Of a stretch of 55,037 nucleotides of DNA, positions 21,100-50,039 are shown piece after piece. The notes under the pieces were generated by a model. It made no database searches and was not told the origin of the DNA. It was given only the letters and a program-made list of their open reading frames with translations. A program made the position numbers and the translations under genes. Origin of the DNA: a virus (Duplodnaviria; Caudoviricetes); IMG/VR virus record IMGVR_UViG_3300005253_003498, positions 1-55,037 of that record, one strand, 5' to 3'. Each line of letters starts with the position of its first letter. The first letter of the stretch is position 1.

Positions 21100-21177
21100 T
21101 TGCAATAGCCCGTCTAATACATTATACTAAGTATACGGTAGGGTCTACTACTACTATACTACTACTGTAGTATAGTA
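21100..21177 (+). promoter_or_regulatory. Sigma70-like promoter plus palindromic CTA-rich element, copy 1
   Basis: TTGCAA-17-TATACT, then an 11-bp inverted repeat tactatactac/gtagtatagta (21152-21177); near-identical to 46234-46293. Confidence 0.6.
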
Positions 21178-33037: not shown

Positions 33038-35264
33038 TTAGACACTTACCCCTTCACTCCAGTTCTTAGGATGGTATTCAATCGAGACGGGGGTTGGTAT
33101 CCCGATGTCGTCTCCACCCTGCTCCATCAGTTTTTGTATCTTCCTGATCTTTGGTAAACTGCCTGGCACTCTAGGTTTTGCATACCTAGACATAACACAC
33201 CTCCCTTGTTCCGCTGGGAAGTCAAACACAAGTTCGTCGTGGATCTGCATCACCATATGGTAACCTCGCGACTTTGGCTTCGCATTCAATTCGTTGAGGT
33301 ATACCTGGCAACGAATCATCGCCTTCATCATCCACCAGCAGGCCGTCCCCTGCGACCAATAATTAAGCGGAACCGTAGGTAGAATTCTACCATAATTCGT
33401 GCGCGTACAAAGAAGTGGGTAACCGCGCTTAGGGTCTACCGTCTTGTCAGGCATTGTCTCAACATAGCCGTGCTTCTCAGCATACTCAATCAGCTTTTCA
33501 TTCAGTAGCTTGGACTTGCGGAATCTACCTGCTATTCTGCGCTGCGCGCCGGGTACGTGATAGGCTTTGTCTGCTGTTCTCAACATAGCCGTGCTTCTCA
33601 GCATACTCAATCAGCTTTTCATTCAGTAGCTTGGACTTGCGGAATCTACCTGCTATTCTGCGCTGCGCGCCGGGTACGTGATAGGCTTTGTCTGCTGTGC
33701 CACTCTGCTCTACTGCGCCATACTGCACGGCGAAGTTACCGTTCTTTGCCCACTGATACCATGTATCAGCGTACTCCTTCTTAGCCTTCAACAATCCCTT
33801 AGGATCGTTATGGTCCCATTTGTCAGGGTGCAGGATGGAAAACACCAGCAAGTGATTGCTGCCGAAGAATGGGGGCTCATCAGGCTTCTCGAATAGCTCG
33901 ATCTGCTCCGTCTCTCCTGACTTGTAAGCCGGCAATCGCAGCTCTATGTTCTGTGCATCAAGGCTCCACCATTCCCGTCCAGGTGCAGGACCAAAGCAGT
34001 ACCGCAGATTGGATCCTTTCTGCTTCGAGATGTTCTGTTCGTTCGGATTCTGACTGCTCCACCGTAGCGTATCAGTACCAGTCGGGTTCAAGGACGGATG
34101 AAGACGGAACCAATCAGCTTCCTTAGTATAATTTGTTCCCCCGGAAGCAGATGGGGAGGTTACGATTAAAGGCAACCAAAATCTTCTATATCCTTCCATA
34201 TAAGCAAGTGCGGTGTCTCGCTTGCGCTTTGTCAGCAACGAGTCGATAAAGAGCTTGGCTTTGCTGCGTCTTGGCAAACTGACTTGATAATCCTCCATGA
34301 CTTTCTTGTCTAAAGAAGGCTTACCTGTCTTCTGGCTCTTTCTTAACACACTCAGCTTCAACACGTCAAAGATGAATGTCGTAAGTGACTTGTTATTACT
34401 AGACTTCGGGAGCTGTAAGTCGTAATCGTAACTCTTGGCAAGATTAGTGCAAACCCTTCCAGCCTCTCCAGACTCTCTTGTGTACTTATGCTGTAGTTCA
34501 GTTAGTCGACTACCGCTGATGGTTACTCCATGGCTTTCCATCTGGCTCACGATAGGGAGGATTTTCAATCTCTCCTGGTAAATTTTCCATAGATTACGCC
34601 TTCGTAGGACTTTTTGTTGCTCCTTGAAAAGCAAGATCGTCACTTCACTATCACTGTTGCCATACTCCGCACACACTTCCCACCACGGATGTTGCTGATT
34701 TCCCGTCCATATATAACTTTCTTCTTTTGCAATTGCTCGTGGAAGCCACATATCGTTCTTCCAAACGGTCCCTCTTGCGCTCGGCATCTGAGGCAGTCCA
34801 ACTCTTGCGATTTGCCAGTTAGGGTATTTACTCTTAGCAATGCGGCGCGCTTCGTTTGTTGCCTCTTTAATTGCATCCTCGAACGGCTTGACGTTGATTC
34901 CAAGGTACATCAAGGCCATTGTAGTAAGATCATGAGGGCGGTTGCTGGCTAGAAGATGACCTGCCAGTAGAGTATCATAGACTTTACCCCAATCCCAATT
35001 TAGCTCCATACTATGAAACGCAAACACGGTTCGCAGGGCGGCTACGTCGAACTTGGGATTTTGTAGAACGATCTTGTCAGCCCAATCAATCTTAGCCTGG
35101 ATTTCTTTCAAGTCGTTCCTAGGCACTCGCGGTTGTCTTGTTACCGGGTTTACGTTCCATGTCCAGTAGGTCTGGAGGCCATCATCATCAGTTAATTGGA
35201 CCATAAACGGTTTGGCGCCATGACAGAAGTCAAGTCCAGTAGTTTCAACGTCTAAGCCAATCAT
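33038..35264 (-). CDS. polA: Family A DNA polymerase (3'-5' exonuclease plus polymerase), frameshifted by a 121-bp duplication
   Basis: LDVETTG, NPKFD, PNEQN, LDAQNIELR, AKNGNFAVQYG, QGTA, QIHDEL; removing one copy of the duplication gives a single 2106-nt frame. Confidence 0.9.
33457..33698. repeat. Exact 121-bp tandem duplication
   Basis: 33457-33577 is identical to 33578-33698. Confidence 0.95.
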
Positions 35265-35527: not shown

Positions 35528-35858
35528 TGGTCACCTCCATTTTGTAAGTGATGGCCTGCTCGCCGATAAAATAGGGCAATGCCTCCAAACAGAATGTCTC
35601 AATATCTCCCTTCGGAAAATTGGAAAGTGGGTCCATCCACCTAGCTCCAAAACATTCAGCAAGTCCCGTCACCGTGGTAGGCTGCTCTGATTTGATCCTT
35701 GATGCTATTTGCAACACTTCTTTAAAGAAGCCTTGGCTGACAATGTGCCCGCGCCTCCACAGCAAGTACAGCGTTTGGGCAACCTCGCCTCGAAAGGTCG
35801 CTACTACATCCGGGTCGGCGCTTTTGCTAGGATCGAAATGTAGTTTCATGGTTATCAC
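35517..35858 (-). CDS. Hypothetical protein
   Basis: SD GGAGGTGA; part of the cassette array. Confidence 0.55.
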   Translation of the reverse strand: MITMKLHFDPSKSADPDVVATFRGEVAQTLYLLWRRGHIVSQGFFKEVLQIASRIKSEQPTTVTGLAECFGARWMDPLSNFPKGDIETFCLEALPYFIGEQAITYKMEVTNEP

Positions 35859-39446: not shown

Positions 39447-39574
39447 CTTCTCTTAGGTCTAAAGGTTGACGGTTGTTTCTTCCCAGTACCTCTACAAGGT
39501 ACACACTTCCCTTTTCGGCTACTAACACCAGATCCCCCGCAGGCTACACACTTCAACTTAGATATCTTCGGCAT
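39443..39574 (-). CDS. 43-aa DnaJ-type zinc-finger mini-protein (not in the ORF track)
   Basis: Translated by hand: MPKISKLKCVACGGSGVSSRKGKCVPCRGTGKKQPSTFRPKRR (two CxxCxGxG); SD GGAG; ATGA overlap. Confidence 0.7.
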   Translation of the reverse strand: MPKISKLKCVACGGSGVSSRKGKCVPCRGTGKKQPSTFRPKRR

Positions 39575-39719: not shown

Positions 39720-40028
39720 CTAGCGGCTTACCCCCTTCTCATCTGTAATCCCTTTCTGCTTTCCCCGCAATTCACGGTAGCGTCCAGGCCATAGCATCCT
39801 TGATTCCTCCCCAGGAACGAATCCACATTCAATTGCCCGAAACCGCATCATCTTGTGATTACGTAGAATTGGTCTCACTGTTAGAATATCACAGATAATA
39901 CGTTTCCGTGATACTCCAAACAATGAATCGAAGGGAGCCGTCCATTTGTTATTGACTCCAAACCGTCTTGTCCGGAACAACAGATGAACTCCTAGCTTCC
40001 AATTCTGCACAAAGTAGGTTATCACCAA
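39720..40028 (-). CDS. Hypothetical basic protein
   Basis: SD AGAGGAG 7 nt before GTG. Confidence 0.5.
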   Translation of the reverse strand: MVITYFVQNWKLGVHLLFRTRRFGVNNKWTAPFDSLFGVSRKRIICDILTVRPILRNHKMMRFRAIECGFVPGEESRMLWPGRYRELRGKQKGITDEKGVSR

Positions 40029-40048
40029 CTACTCCTCTCGTGTTTGAA

Positions 40049-40254
40049 AACCATCGCGGCGACCCGACTTGCCATTTCGGCGGGCGACGTCCCCGCGTGT
40101 CTCGCATGGCTGCGTTGCGGTAAATCCACCGCATAAACCTCGGGAGTGCTGCTTCCCGGTCGGGCTCCAAGGGATGATTCACGACCCGGGGCTGCGTACA
40201 GCCGGTTTCGGGTCGCAGCAGTTTGTGGAGCGGTACGCCGCCGCCGCGATGGTT
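40049..40254 (-). ncRNA. ~206-nt multibranch structured RNA of unknown class
   Basis: Perfect 13-bp closing helix AACCAUCGCGGCG/CGCCGCGAUGGUU with nested hairpins (GGCUG-UACG-CAGCC, UGCGGU/ACCGCA, CGGGA/UCCCG, GCC-GAAAU-GGC). Confidence 0.7.
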
Positions 40255-40264
40255 GTGTTGTAAG

Positions 40265-40384
40265 TGGCTCCGACCGGACTTGAACCGGCACGATCGTTCG
40301 CATGTTTTCTGTCATAATTTCAGACAATGGCTTTTCCAACGATCTCAAGCCAATATCAGCGTCTACCAATTCCGCCACGGAACC
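40265..40384 (-). ncRNA. Oversized tRNA-like RNA A (120 nt, no canonical anticodon arm)
   Basis: Acceptor GGTTCCG/CGGAGCC-A, D arm GCGGAATTGGTAGACGC, T arm GCCGG-TTCAAGT-CCGGT; ~69-nt interior. Confidence 0.8.
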
Positions 40385-40457: not shown

Positions 40458-40571
40458 TGGCTCCGACGGGAGTCGAACCCGCAACCAGCGTTTCTCTTGC
40501 AACGCGGCTTCTGTTCCTGCTGATCGCCAATTTGCCACAAGCGATGCGTCTACCAATTTCGCCACGGAGCC
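40458..40571 (-). ncRNA. Oversized tRNA-like RNA B (114 nt, no canonical anticodon arm)
   Basis: Acceptor GGCTCCG/CGGAGCC-A, D arm GCGAAATTGGTAGACGC, T arm GCGGG-TTCGACT-CCCGT; ~63-nt interior. Confidence 0.8.
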
Positions 40572-41675: not shown

Positions 41676-41861
41676 TCATTCCTCCTTTCGTTTTCCGTCT
41701 CTCTGAATTGCGTCATATACCTCACGGCGATGAACCGAAACTTCCTTTGGCGCTTCGATACCTAAACGGACCTTGTCCCCCCGAATCTCCACGACCACGA
41801 TCGTAATGTCATCGTTGATGACAATACTTTCGTTCTTCTTCCGCGATAGAACTAGCATCAC
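41676..41861 (-). CDS. csrA: Carbon storage regulator
   Basis: [48 protein letters not shown]. Confidence 0.95.
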
Positions 41862-46214: not shown

Positions 46215-46293
46215 TTGCATTCGTCAGTTTTTGCATTATACTAAGTATACAGCAGGGTCTACTACTACTACTATACTACTATAGTAGTATAGT
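46215..46293 (+). promoter_or_regulatory. Sigma70-like promoter plus palindromic CTA-rich element, copy 2
   Basis: TTGCAT-16-TATACT; perfect 24-bp palindrome actatactactatagtagtatagt (46270-46293). Confidence 0.6.
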
Positions 46294-48215: not shown

Positions 48216-48272
48216 ACAGTTGTAATGCAAAACACAACCACACCCCCTGAAACCCCTTACCGGAGTGCTACG

Positions 48273-48533
48273 ATGAAAAAGACTTGGACCGTCAAAGGCG
48301 ACTGGAAACCAGATGCCAGAAACCGGCTTGGCGTATTGCTGCTACAGCAAGAACAAGAAGCACGGAAGGCGCAAAGAAAAACACGCCATGCCAAGCCAAG
48401 CAGTTTTGCTGGTGTCCTACATACGTATAGGACTAAGAAAGAAGCCGAAGAAGGGCTACAGAAGTACCGCGCAGGACAGATGGGGCATACGGCCACGATG
48501 ATGGAAAACTTCCGCATCGTGCAAGTTGACTAA
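48273..48533 (+). CDS. Hypothetical early protein
   Basis: Start reassigned to MKKTW after the conserved leader (GGAG). Confidence 0.6.
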   Translation: MKKTWTVKGDWKPDARNRLGVLLLQQEQEARKAQRKTRHAKPSSFAGVLHTYRTKKEAEEGLQKYRAGQMGHTATMMENFRIVQVD

Positions 48534-48565
48534 TCCACCCTTTACCCAAACCTAGGAGCGAAACG

Positions 48566-48727
48566 ATGAAGGTCACACGAACTAGGATCGACGGTCGGAT
48601 GATTGAAGCTTGGAAAAAGGGCAACACTTTCTATTGTCAAGATGTGATGTGCGCAGGTATTGTAGGCCGTGGTCGAAGTGAAAAAGCGGCCCTAACTTCA
48701 CTACTTCGCAAGCTAGAAGAATTTTAG
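48566..48727 (+). CDS. 53-aa protein (not in the ORF track), weakly HicB-like
   Basis: SD AGGAG; MKVTRTRIDGRMIEAWKKGNTFYCQDVMCAGIVGRGRSEKAALTSLLRKLEEF. Confidence 0.55.
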   Translation: MKVTRTRIDGRMIEAWKKGNTFYCQDVMCAGIVGRGRSEKAALTSLLRKLEEF

Positions 48728-48810
48728 TAACCCCCACTCACCGCGCCGTCACCCTAGCCGGCGCGCTAGCGGTTACACTACCCCCTAAACCCTACTACAG
48801 GAGTGTTACG

Positions 48811-48996
48811 ATGACAGGTTATGCAATCTACGATTACGATACAAAACTCTACTTCGTAACAGACATGGTCTGGAATAGTGACCCGCAACCCCAATCCATC
48901 TGGGATACAGAAGCAGAAGCGCAAGACGCATTATCAATCGGTACCCGGGTGGGTGTCATGTCGGGTGATCTAGGAATCTGTGTGGTTGTAGTTTAG
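48811..48996 (+). CDS. Hypothetical early protein
   Basis: Conserved leader with SD. Confidence 0.6.
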   Translation: MTGYAIYDYDTKLYFVTDMVWNSDPQPQSIWDTEAEAQDALSIGTRVGVMSGDLGICVVVV

Positions 48997-49089
48997 TAAC
49001 CTGGTCCCAAGATCGGCCCCGATAGCGCAACCAGGTGTCGCAACCCGGCGGGGCACTGTTTACACGATACCCGCAACCCCATAGGTGAC

Positions 49090-49413
49090 GTGATGAAAAC
49101 CTACCAAGTCGAAAAAGAAATTACCCTGCATGTTAGTGCTGAAGGCTCAGGCAAGGACTGGTACTGGTCCTTCCTAAATTGGGAAGGGCTTGGGGCTGAC
49201 GAAATGGATGCTATCGCCAACTCCAATGGGGACGAATTTATAATCTGGGACGCCGTCGTTACTCGAGACGGTGACGACTTTCTGATCCAAGGTTGTACAG
49301 AATGTAGTGGCGACGGTGAAGCCTGCGAAGTGCGGATTGACAAAAGCCTTGTGACCTTCGATTACAACTACGGTTGTCGAGATAGTACGTTCTTGCAAGA
49401 ACTGGGCGACTAG
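49090..49413 (+). CDS. Acidic hypothetical protein, paralog of 49490..49831
   Basis: Shared VSAEG.GKDWYWSFLNWEG and DAVVTRDGDDFLIQG. Confidence 0.75.
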   Translation: MMKTYQVEKEITLHVSAEGSGKDWYWSFLNWEGLGADEMDAIANSNGDEFIIWDAVVTRDGDDFLIQGCTECSGDGEACEVRIDKSLVTFDYNYGCRDSTFLQELGD

Positions 49414-49489
49414 TGTCCCCGTTACCGCGCCCTACAGGGGCGTGGACCCGGTTACACTACCCCCTAAACCCTACTACAGGAGTGTTACG

Positions 49490-49831
49490 ATGAAGACTTA
49501 CCGAATTGAAAAAGCGGTTGCCCTGTTTGTTAGTGCTGAAGGCGCAGGCAAGGATTGGTACTGGTCCTTTCTGAACTGGGAAGGGCCTGGAGGTGCTGCT
49601 ATGGATACACTAGCCGCAGCCGATGACGAACCCGTAGTCGTTGACGCCGTCGTTACCCGAGACGGTGACGACTTTCTGATCCAAGGCAGTACAGATTACC
49701 ATGGCTGCGGCGAAGCCGTCGAGGTACGAGTCGACAAACGATTCGTAACTGCTGTTGGCTACAACTACGAAGACGAAGACGACGGGTCCCTAGGCGACAG
49801 CCACACGTTCCTGCCAGAACTGACATCCTAA
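49490..49831 (+). CDS. Acidic hypothetical protein, paralog of 49090..49413
   Basis: Start reassigned to MKTYR after the conserved leader. Confidence 0.75.
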   Translation: MKTYRIEKAVALFVSAEGAGKDWYWSFLNWEGPGGAAMDTLAAADDEPVVVDAVVTRDGDDFLIQGSTDYHGCGEAVEVRVDKRFVTAVGYNYEDEDDGSLGDSHTFLPELTS

Positions 49832-49877
49832 GGTACGCCGTTCACTACCCCCTTAACCCTACAAGAGGAGTGCTATC

Positions 49878-50039
49878 ATGAAAGAAAAAGTCAAGTTTCA
49901 GTCTGGTACCCACACGGTCACCGTCAAGATCGACAAGCAACTAGGCAAGATCGCCTACCTACCCGGTTCAGGCTGGCACTGTGTAGACAAGCACAATGTG
50001 GCCTACGCCGCTTGCGGCATACGTCTGTCCAGCAAGTGA
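49878..50039 (+). CDS. 53-aa protein (not in the ORF track)
   Basis: SD AGAGGAG; MKEKVKFQSGTHTVTVKIDKQLGKIAYLPGSGWHCVDKHNVAYAACGIRLSSK. Confidence 0.55.
   Translation: MKEKVKFQSGTHTVTVKIDKQLGKIAYLPGSGWHCVDKHNVAYAACGIRLSSK

Follow-up and report, generated by a model that had tools for sequence, protein, structure and literature searches.

A 206-nucleotide element beside tRNA-like genes of a marine-sediment phage looks like an unclassified folded RNA with two separately conserved parts

What is the GC-rich stretch that lies between a pair of tRNA-like genes and the next protein gene in the phage sequence IMGVR_UViG_3300005253_003498? This IMG/VR virus record of 55,037 bp, analyzed over its whole length and called the window below, is classed as 'provirus' and as 78% complete, and its genes include terminase, portal, head-morphogenesis, DNA polymerase, helicase, and methyltransferase. 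The element occupies positions 40049..40254 on the minus strand. A first reading made from the letters alone (the sequence-only reading) described it as an unclassified multibranch RNA, released by processing of the tRNA-like units and loosely analogous to the RNAs GOLLD and ROOL. The observation of a structured element is confirmed. The 206-nt stretch looks like a real, unclassified folded RNA of two separately conserved parts, an inner core and a closing stem. The explanation that we favor, in which an RNA-level structure on the gene strand encloses a stable RNA cargo within a stem that would serve as a processing and insulating signal, has a probability of about 0.4 on our reckoning.

The ends of the element pair with each other. 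The 13-nt arm AACCAUCGCGGCG (40254-40242, minus strand) is a perfect complement of CGCCGCGAUGGUU (40061-40049), and the closing helix claimed by the sequence-only reading extends to 15 bp in the minimum free energy (MFE) fold. The inner features named in that reading are all found: a GCGG-CGUA-CCGC hairpin at element positions 14-25, the P3 arm (40180..40217, minus strand; element positions 38-75), in which GCGACCCG pairs with CGGGUCGU below a GGCUG-UACG-CAGCC cap, and a GCCCGAC/GUCGGGU helix. The last was thought to close a junction of five short hairpins; five hairpin loops are indeed predicted, but for the element as a whole, and only three branches lie within this helix. An alternative conformation had also been envisaged. 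It exists on paper, with GCGACCCGA (positions 39-47) pairing with UCGGGUCGC (188-196), and is the one used in the MFE fold of the L058 copy described below. The GC content is high, as stated, at 65.5% versus ~50% for the window.

The minus strand reaches an MFE of -100 kcal/mol (z = -4.26), and none of 200 dinucleotide shuffles folds as well, so that the element has the folding excess that had been anticipated. The plus strand gives z = -3.02, again with 0 of 200 shuffles as good. For 33 random 206-nt windows taken from the same strand, z averages -0.36 (sd 0.83, minimum -2.49), as compared with -4.47 for the element. Could the stretch nevertheless be a chance GC-rich spacer without function? 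Regression of MFE on GC (1097 windows with both strands pooled, 2194 values) leaves a residual of only about -2 (-1.9 for the minus and -2.1 for the plus strand); this is no outlier, as the best residual is -2.9, and 65.5% GC lies in the extrapolated range of the regression. The 13-bp inverted repeat, the single one in the window, is also weak evidence when taken alone, since at least one appears in 23 of 200 block shuffles. Shuffle z values of -4.3 to -4.5 nevertheless fall far beyond the control windows, and both parts of the element recur in other phages. A functionless spacer was already disfavored on these grounds and is hardly credible.

The core module (40059..40246, minus strand) is 188 nt long and 97.3% identical, with five transitions, to positions 4709-4896 of L058. 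This 12.4-kb phage-like contig encodes an integrase, tRNA-Met, RecE/RecT, and CsrA; it has no DNA in common with the window other than the 188-nt core, and at the protein level the two share only CsrA. An exact scan with one core 21-mer matched four metagenome contigs (L058, L059, L060, and L061). L060 is the same phage as the window (98.7% over 12.5 kb), while L059 and L061 were rejected as homologues, having only the 21-mer in common, as expected of chance matches. No match to this 21-mer was obtained in IMG/VR by exact scanning, nor did two separate 21-nt core words match exactly in a set of 185,579 genomes, one per species.

The core is also set apart in the sediment metagenomes. The element stretch is contained in four marine-sediment runs from two studies, none of which is an RNA run. 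In Logan contigs of four sediment runs, depth over 40059-40246 is 5-100 times that of the flanks, and in run X4 it is 750-1566 versus 8-13. Unitigs break exactly at 40059 and 40246, with other flanks joined to the core. The four listed differences of L058 match the abundant variant seen in the read contigs. The raised depth is explained by the more abundant L058-like phage, which shares the core.

Both copies of the core (2/2) sit in tRNA-like clusters, and the tRNA association that had been likened to GOLLD and ROOL is thus a recurrent one. In L058, the core is part of an 800-nt noncoding stretch (L058:4552-5350) with tRNA-Met and four T-arm-like motifs that were missed by tRNA finders. Only the window copy abuts a ribosome-binding site, which argues against the core being simply a leader. 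We note that expanded tRNA-like RNAs are a habit common to these two unrelated phages. A tRNA-Leu-like half in the 5' flank of the L058 core was considered and left as speculation.

The sequences that flank the core in L058 are unrelated to the window flanks, yet they again close it as a helix. In the register of the window there are three double-sided pair changes (C-G to A-U, U-A to G-C, and G-C to A-U) and one change from G-C to G.U, a result reached by 16 of 500 shuffles. The MFE fold of L058 itself features a longer outer helix, formed by CAGCACAG/CUGUGCUG plus GGGCAGAG../..CUCUUUGCCC. Within the core, all five L058 differences and the single L060 difference map to the P3 arm. Three of the five substitutions keep or strengthen pairs (U.G to C-G, G.U to G-C, and G-C to G.U) and one is unpaired. 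As 56 of 69 pairs never vary between two cores that are 97% alike, the interior fold stays a prediction.

The outer part of the element is conserved separately. A 5' conserved block, AACCATCGCGGCGGCGGCGT (40235..40254, minus strand), contributes the 5' strand of the closing helix through its first 13-15 nt. The 3' conserved block, AAGTCGGGTCGCCGCGATGGTT (40049..40070, minus strand), supplies the 3' strand together with a stacked helix, and has 20 contiguous paired nucleotides in the MFE fold. It is followed by a conserved leader (40029..40048, minus strand) made up of a U-run, GA.AC, and then the Shine-Dalgarno sequence GAGGAG of the next gene. Three further closing-stem elements were located: E2 (L058:5538-5674, 137 nt) and E3 (L058:6483-6632, 150 nt) in the contig that also carries the core, and one of 171 nt at 35826..35656 of another IMG/VR record, G001. 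All three start with the 20-nt block AACCATCGCGGCGGCGGCGT (20/20 identical) and end with (A)ATCCGGCYCGTCGCGATGGTT, the corresponding window end being AAGTCGGGTCGCCGCGATGGTT. The leader layout is seen again after E2 and E3, and in part after the G001 element. The interiors of these three elements are unrelated to one another, to the core, and to all other collected sequences, and each is predicted to adopt a multibranch fold closed by the same helix (z = -3.0, -4.7, and -3.9). Across all four elements the closing stem spans 12-15 bp, and a 3'-proximal helix stacks on it to give 17-21 contiguous paired 3' nucleotides; the folded interior between the strands of the closing helix measures ~110-180 nt, and a U-run of four to five follows the closing helix. 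The element is therefore a mosaic of two separately conserved modules and not the single unit of the sequence-only reading.

Two columns of the 3' block vary between U and C opposite an invariant G. Such changes are tolerated in RNA made from the gene strand, whereas they would put a mismatch (A.C) into the opposite strand or into a cruciform of the DNA; this pattern points to an RNA on the gene strand. E2, E3, and the G001 element lie between protein genes and not beside tRNAs, which suggests that the stem works independently of tRNA processing. By the same token, release by tRNA processing, as had been proposed for the window element, is not general, since three of the four stem-bearing elements are located between protein genes.

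The stem is rare. Two other loci, G002 and G003, share just the 5' block, which is identical in G002, and an 8-bp helix remnant. Among the viral loci, 9 of 12 with the 19-nt 5' block and four of five with the 3' block lack the partner arm, as do all genome loci that contain the 20-nt 5' block (31 of 31); by eye, these look like GC-rich coding DNA. A fuzzy two-arm search for the stem in 1.45 Mb of collected loci returned no further members. A further stem variant in the population is suggested by a contig of run X4 that, at window position 40258, joins tRNA-like A to the start of a variant element (...CCGCCCGGG versus ...CGCGATGG, plus strand; 15 letters).

Wider searches for relatives were no more productive. 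Distant BLAST against the cultured phages of INPHARED was negative for the window region, for L058:4400-6750, and also for the G001 element. Relatives were also collected through the neighboring Cas4-like exonuclease (29 loci) and ClpN protein (17 loci), and neither BLAST nor nhmmer found a copy of the element among them; the syntenic gap instead holds ordinary or suppressor tRNAs. The 318-aa and 198-aa proteins of the neighborhood have no close relatives in IMG/VR, and no such element lies upstream of the 102-aa protein family at 10 viral and five genomic loci. A covariance model built from three core sequences retrieved only its own training copies from 979 kb of collected loci, with L058 E2 scoring 14.3 bits (E = 0.63). 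The family is new, rare, and so far tiny: across three phages it counts two independent cores and four elements that bear the stem.

Does the element need an RNA function of its own? A purely cis-acting intercistronic element would offer another account, with the stem, U-run, and leader acting as an attenuator, a terminator, or a 5'-stabilizer and translation cassette around an interior that is a functionless, drifting insert. All four full-stem elements begin 9-22 nt past a stop codon or tRNA-like gene, and in each case UUUU(U) comes next, with a Shine-Dalgarno sequence and start codon then reached within 11-46 nt. The lack of any similarity among the E2, E3, and G001 interiors is also what drifting inserts would show. 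The window interior, however, is not drifting, being 97.3% conserved in L058, where another helix encloses it and no ribosome-binding site is near. A consensus terminator scan, which allows only loops of 3-8 nt, finds no site at the 3' end of the element, and ordinary terminator stems do not keep 20/20 nt when the proteins that the phages have in common are 53-62% identical. We regard the cis-acting account as a serious contender that is nonetheless unlikely.

The mosaic borders raise a second possibility, that the element is selfish or recombining DNA with no RNA function: either an element akin to a miniature inverted-repeat transposable element (MITE), its 13-bp ends being the terminal inverted repeats, or a cassette that co-infecting phages exchange through short homologous stretches such as CGGCGGCGGCGT. 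Correia/CREE-type MITEs and REP/BIME sequences are short, intergenic, and bounded by inverted ends; they are transcribed along with neighboring genes and form stems in mRNA. The terminal repeats, sizes of 137-206 bp, intergenic positions, and sharp borders at 40059 and 40246 fit such an origin, as does the finding that the same ends surround different interiors. The 13-bp perfect inverted ends are, however, the only MITE hallmark found, with no systematic search made for a transposase. A flanking direct repeat (target-site duplication) is seen in none of the four elements, and there is no multicopy set with a shared interior. Within a MITE family the copies normally have the same interior, whereas the interiors here are unrelated. 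Unlike Correia or REP sequences, moreover, the element is single-copy in the window and in each other context, and the core itself has no inverted ends. Neither of the two core words occurs in the 185,579 species genomes, and none of the 31 matches to the 5' block in genomes is a true copy. The U/C variation opposite G and the re-formation of the helix with new sequence speak for selection on RNA pairing. MITEs shared by phages and hosts have been described (PMC11602168), and the selfish-DNA account is nevertheless improbable in our view.

If the element is an RNA, does it belong to a known class? No match to Rfam 15 (4227 models, among them tRNA, tmRNA, RNase P, 6S, Y RNA, GOLLD, ROOL, raiA, HEARO, ribozymes, and riboswitches) was obtained over 40049-40254, either at gathering thresholds or at E<=10 in a 2-kb search. 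The same holds for E1, E2, and E3 of L058. The sequence-only reading was accordingly right to call the element unclassified. ARAGORN finds no tRNA or tmRNA over the element with or without introns, and the Rfam tRNA matches end at 40265. A retron msr-msd would have paired ends such as these, but none of 10 neighboring proteins contains a reverse transcriptase domain. An integron attC site was rejected in view of ends that misfit the RYYYAAC/GTTRRRY cores and the absence of a cassette array, and an archaeal bulge-helix-bulge intron in view of a perfect closing helix with no bulges. A CRISPR repeat and an HDV-like or theta ribozyme were set aside for want of an Rfam signal, theta ribozymes being possibly outside Rfam. 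No description of such an element was found in the literature by word searches, which are blind to sequence families.

The absence of Rfam families, whole or partial, also bears on whether the core might be a host-derived DNA fragment, such as the 3' portion of an RNA gene that the phage carries as an attachment site. Such an origin would explain near-identity in unrelated temperate phages; the L058 core is 350 nt downstream of the integrase and tRNA-Met, and the window is a provirus according to IMG/VR. Two 21-nt core words, however, have no exact match in the 185,579 species genomes. In the window, no integrase is present among the 10 neighboring proteins scanned, and the element belongs to a replication/recombination module. 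We consider a host fragment highly improbable.

The claim that the stretch has no credible open reading frame (ORF) holds as far as tested. A 118-aa ORF does cover the element and overlaps tRNA-like A, but it has no Pfam or PHROG match and no relatives among ~5.8 billion protein clusters (lengths of 64-207 aa searched). The five core substitutions would change two to four amino acids depending on the frame; in the sense frame that is open in both copies of the core, three of five are synonymous, a proportion that does not reach significance.

The three full-stem phages (the window, L058, and G001) have a single protein family in common, CsrA. It was confirmed by Pfam for the window and L058 and by genome search for G000 and G001, and is not found in G002 or G003. 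The csrA homologues lie at 41676..41861 (minus strand; Pfam CsrA, 1.3e-27) in the window, at L058:6704-6925, and at G001:35361-35513, and their products are 53-62% identical to one another. G001 and the window also share the ClpN protein and two small ORFs. Could the element then be a regulatory RNA tied to CsrA, acting as a sponge for the phage or host protein or as an autoregulated csrA leader? CsrA is encoded by 3/3 full-stem phages and not by G002, which has the 5' block only; E3 and the G001 element directly precede csrA, and the last hairpin loop of E3 is GUGGA. A Csr/Rsm sponge was rejected, however, as GGA is not enriched over the four distinct elements (12 versus 11.9 expected, P = 0.55) and occurs mostly in stems. 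The conserved blocks contain no GGA, the window element is 1.4 kb from csrA and precedes a different gene, and three phages are a small sample in which one shared module may explain the association. A CsrA-linked role is very unlikely.

The proposal that best accommodates these data starts from the observed structure excess, the conservation of each module elsewhere, the closing helix re-formed with new sequence, the G.U pattern, and the lack of a coding signal. To these we add, by inference, transcription, cleavage at the stem, stability, and any function of the cargo in trans. The element would be transcribed together with the two upstream tRNA-like genes and the downstream 102-aa gene. The functional cargo would be the 188-nt multibranch core, a stable and structured RNA that belongs to phage tRNA-like clusters. 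The conserved stem would act as a sequence-specific double-strand signal for processing and insulation, much as do the rRNA-flanking stems cut by RNase III or the intercistronic sites of T7. Cleavage at the stem would then free the cargo RNA or shield it, and would define where the downstream message begins. The earlier notion of a new phage noncoding RNA survives in this form, being consistent with the phage context, the noncoding character, the lack of an Rfam match, and a core found at 97.3% identity in the tRNA-like cluster of a second phage; the sequence-only reading is partly supported.

Several observations weigh against the proposal, in addition to the GC-corrected residual and the shuffle frequency of the inverted repeat given above. 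A helix of 12-15 bp is short for RNase III, and cleavage at the stem is a proposal only. The window register loses three outer pairs in L058, and the compensatory signal comes from one comparison. One of the five core substitutions breaks an A-U pair. The independent core sequences number only two and are 97% alike, with 56 of 69 pairs invariant, and their near-identity across two phages could be due to recent transfer and not to selection.

A broader idea involves exchange between phages. An unrelated and far more abundant phage from the same samples has, in its tRNA-like cluster, an RNA with 97% identity to the window cargo. CsrA-encoding sediment phages might possess a portable cassette, consisting of stem and ribosome-binding site, that carries and processes interchangeable structured RNA cargos traded between co-occurring phages. 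The cargo could then be a horizontally traded accessory RNA, or a competitor's RNA captured as a decoy in phage-phage or phage-defense conflict. This extension is speculative and, as it stands, rather improbable.

How does the stem-enclosed cargo RNA proposed here compare with known systems? GOLLD and ROOL are structured noncoding RNAs near tRNAs and in prophages, ROOL having an average length of 581 nt (PMC5737381) and GOLLD being longer. The likeness is that of a structured RNA near tRNA genes in phage or prophage DNA. At 206 nt, the element is much smaller, as had been noted, with about one third of the ROOL average. It fails the Rfam models of both RNAs, so it is a member of neither; a further difference is its modular closing stem, which recurs around other interiors.

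Other parallels are closer in size or geometry. The stable RNAs of the T4 tRNA cluster (species 1 and 2) are ~100-200 nt long, co-transcribed with tRNAs, and trimmed to a form with paired ends. Compared by description, they resemble the element in being RNAs of similar size among phage tRNA genes with paired ends; they have no known shared stem module or ribosome-binding leader. RNase III stems, as in the flanks of 16S and 23S rRNA or the intercistronic sites of T7, are helices around a structured RNA or between cistrons that mark a cut in the transcript. The likeness is one of geometry only, with the helix here at 12-15 bp, or 17-21 contiguous paired nucleotides when the stacked helix is counted. 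Start-associated sequences with extended inverted repeats in cluster K mycobacteriophages and the PeSL cassettes of T4-like phages are conserved, portable motifs just upstream of translation starts in several phage genes that are unrelated to one another. Those are short DNA or promoter motifs, whereas here the motif encloses a folded stretch of 116-185 nt and has a pairing pattern indicative of RNA.

Phage tRNA clusters are known for extra structured RNAs such as GOLLD, ROOL, and the T4 stable RNAs, and the element would be a small and tractable addition. It is unusual in that one cargo occurs within two distinct closing helices, and one closing helix surrounds four different cargos. If the proposal is true, RNA function, residing in the core, is separable from delivery or processing by the stem. 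The conserved stem blocks also provide a handle with which to search metagenomes for further phage RNA cargos.

In the window, the minus-strand gene order is exonuclease, Sak4, DUF7336, csrA, 318-aa protein, tRNA-like B, tRNA-like A, element, and 102-aa gene, within the replication/recombination module. The Cas4-like exonuclease and Sak4-like annealing protein are accompanied nearby by uracil-DNA glycosylase, a ClpN-domain protein, and an HNH-like protein. tRNA-like A (40265..40384, minus strand) scores 30.4 bits against the Rfam tRNA model and contains a ~54-nt insertion. Its 3' end is 10 nt upstream of the element, which, in this Rfam placement, starts 10 nt past the discriminator base, in agreement with the spacing first reported. 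tRNA-like B (40458..40571, minus strand) scores 40.3 bits, with an insertion of ~51 nt. Both are detected by ARAGORN only when introns are allowed. The two RNAs are 115-125 nt long with normal acceptor stem, D-arm, and T-arm and ~50 extra nucleotides in the anticodon/variable region.

The 102-aa ORF downstream of the element is a real gene (39720..40028, minus strand), with a start 20 nt past the element and five homologues at 45-64% identity, often in phage tRNA arrays. The protein has an invariant WKL..HL.FRT..FG.N motif and belongs to no Pfam or PHROG family. Its homologues occur in diverse phages, often within tRNA arrays (L056 and L051), and also in Desulfobacterota, Nitrospirota, and Spirochaetota genomes. 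At or near the syntenic gap of the relatives there are suppressor-type tRNAs, CUA in L004-L006 (14095-14166), L034, L035, and L039, and UUA in L051 (2683-2758). These hint at stop-codon recoding in this group of phages. The long ORFs of the window read well in the standard code.

Other features of the window were recorded in passing. The DNA polymerase region contains an exact 121-nt tandem duplication (33457-33698), and the single polymerase of ~680-750 aa in relatives matches two window ORFs (35264..33579 and 33577..33041); the duplication is either an assembly artefact or a real disruption. A seemingly noncoding gap upstream of a 110-aa ORF includes a conserved 32-aa coding stretch (39473-39568, minus strand) that is 53% identical to a 70-aa ORF of L017. 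Four copies of a 45-nt motif, two of them identical, occur at 48232-49881 (plus strand); the motif has AGGAGTG..ATGA at its end, immediately ahead of plus-strand genes, and is probably a repeated promoter or leader cassette. Finally, a TACTA-rich, partly palindromic 53-nt repeat is found at 21120-21177 and 46234-46293, its two copies being 89% identical and positioned 25 kb apart near strand-switch regions.
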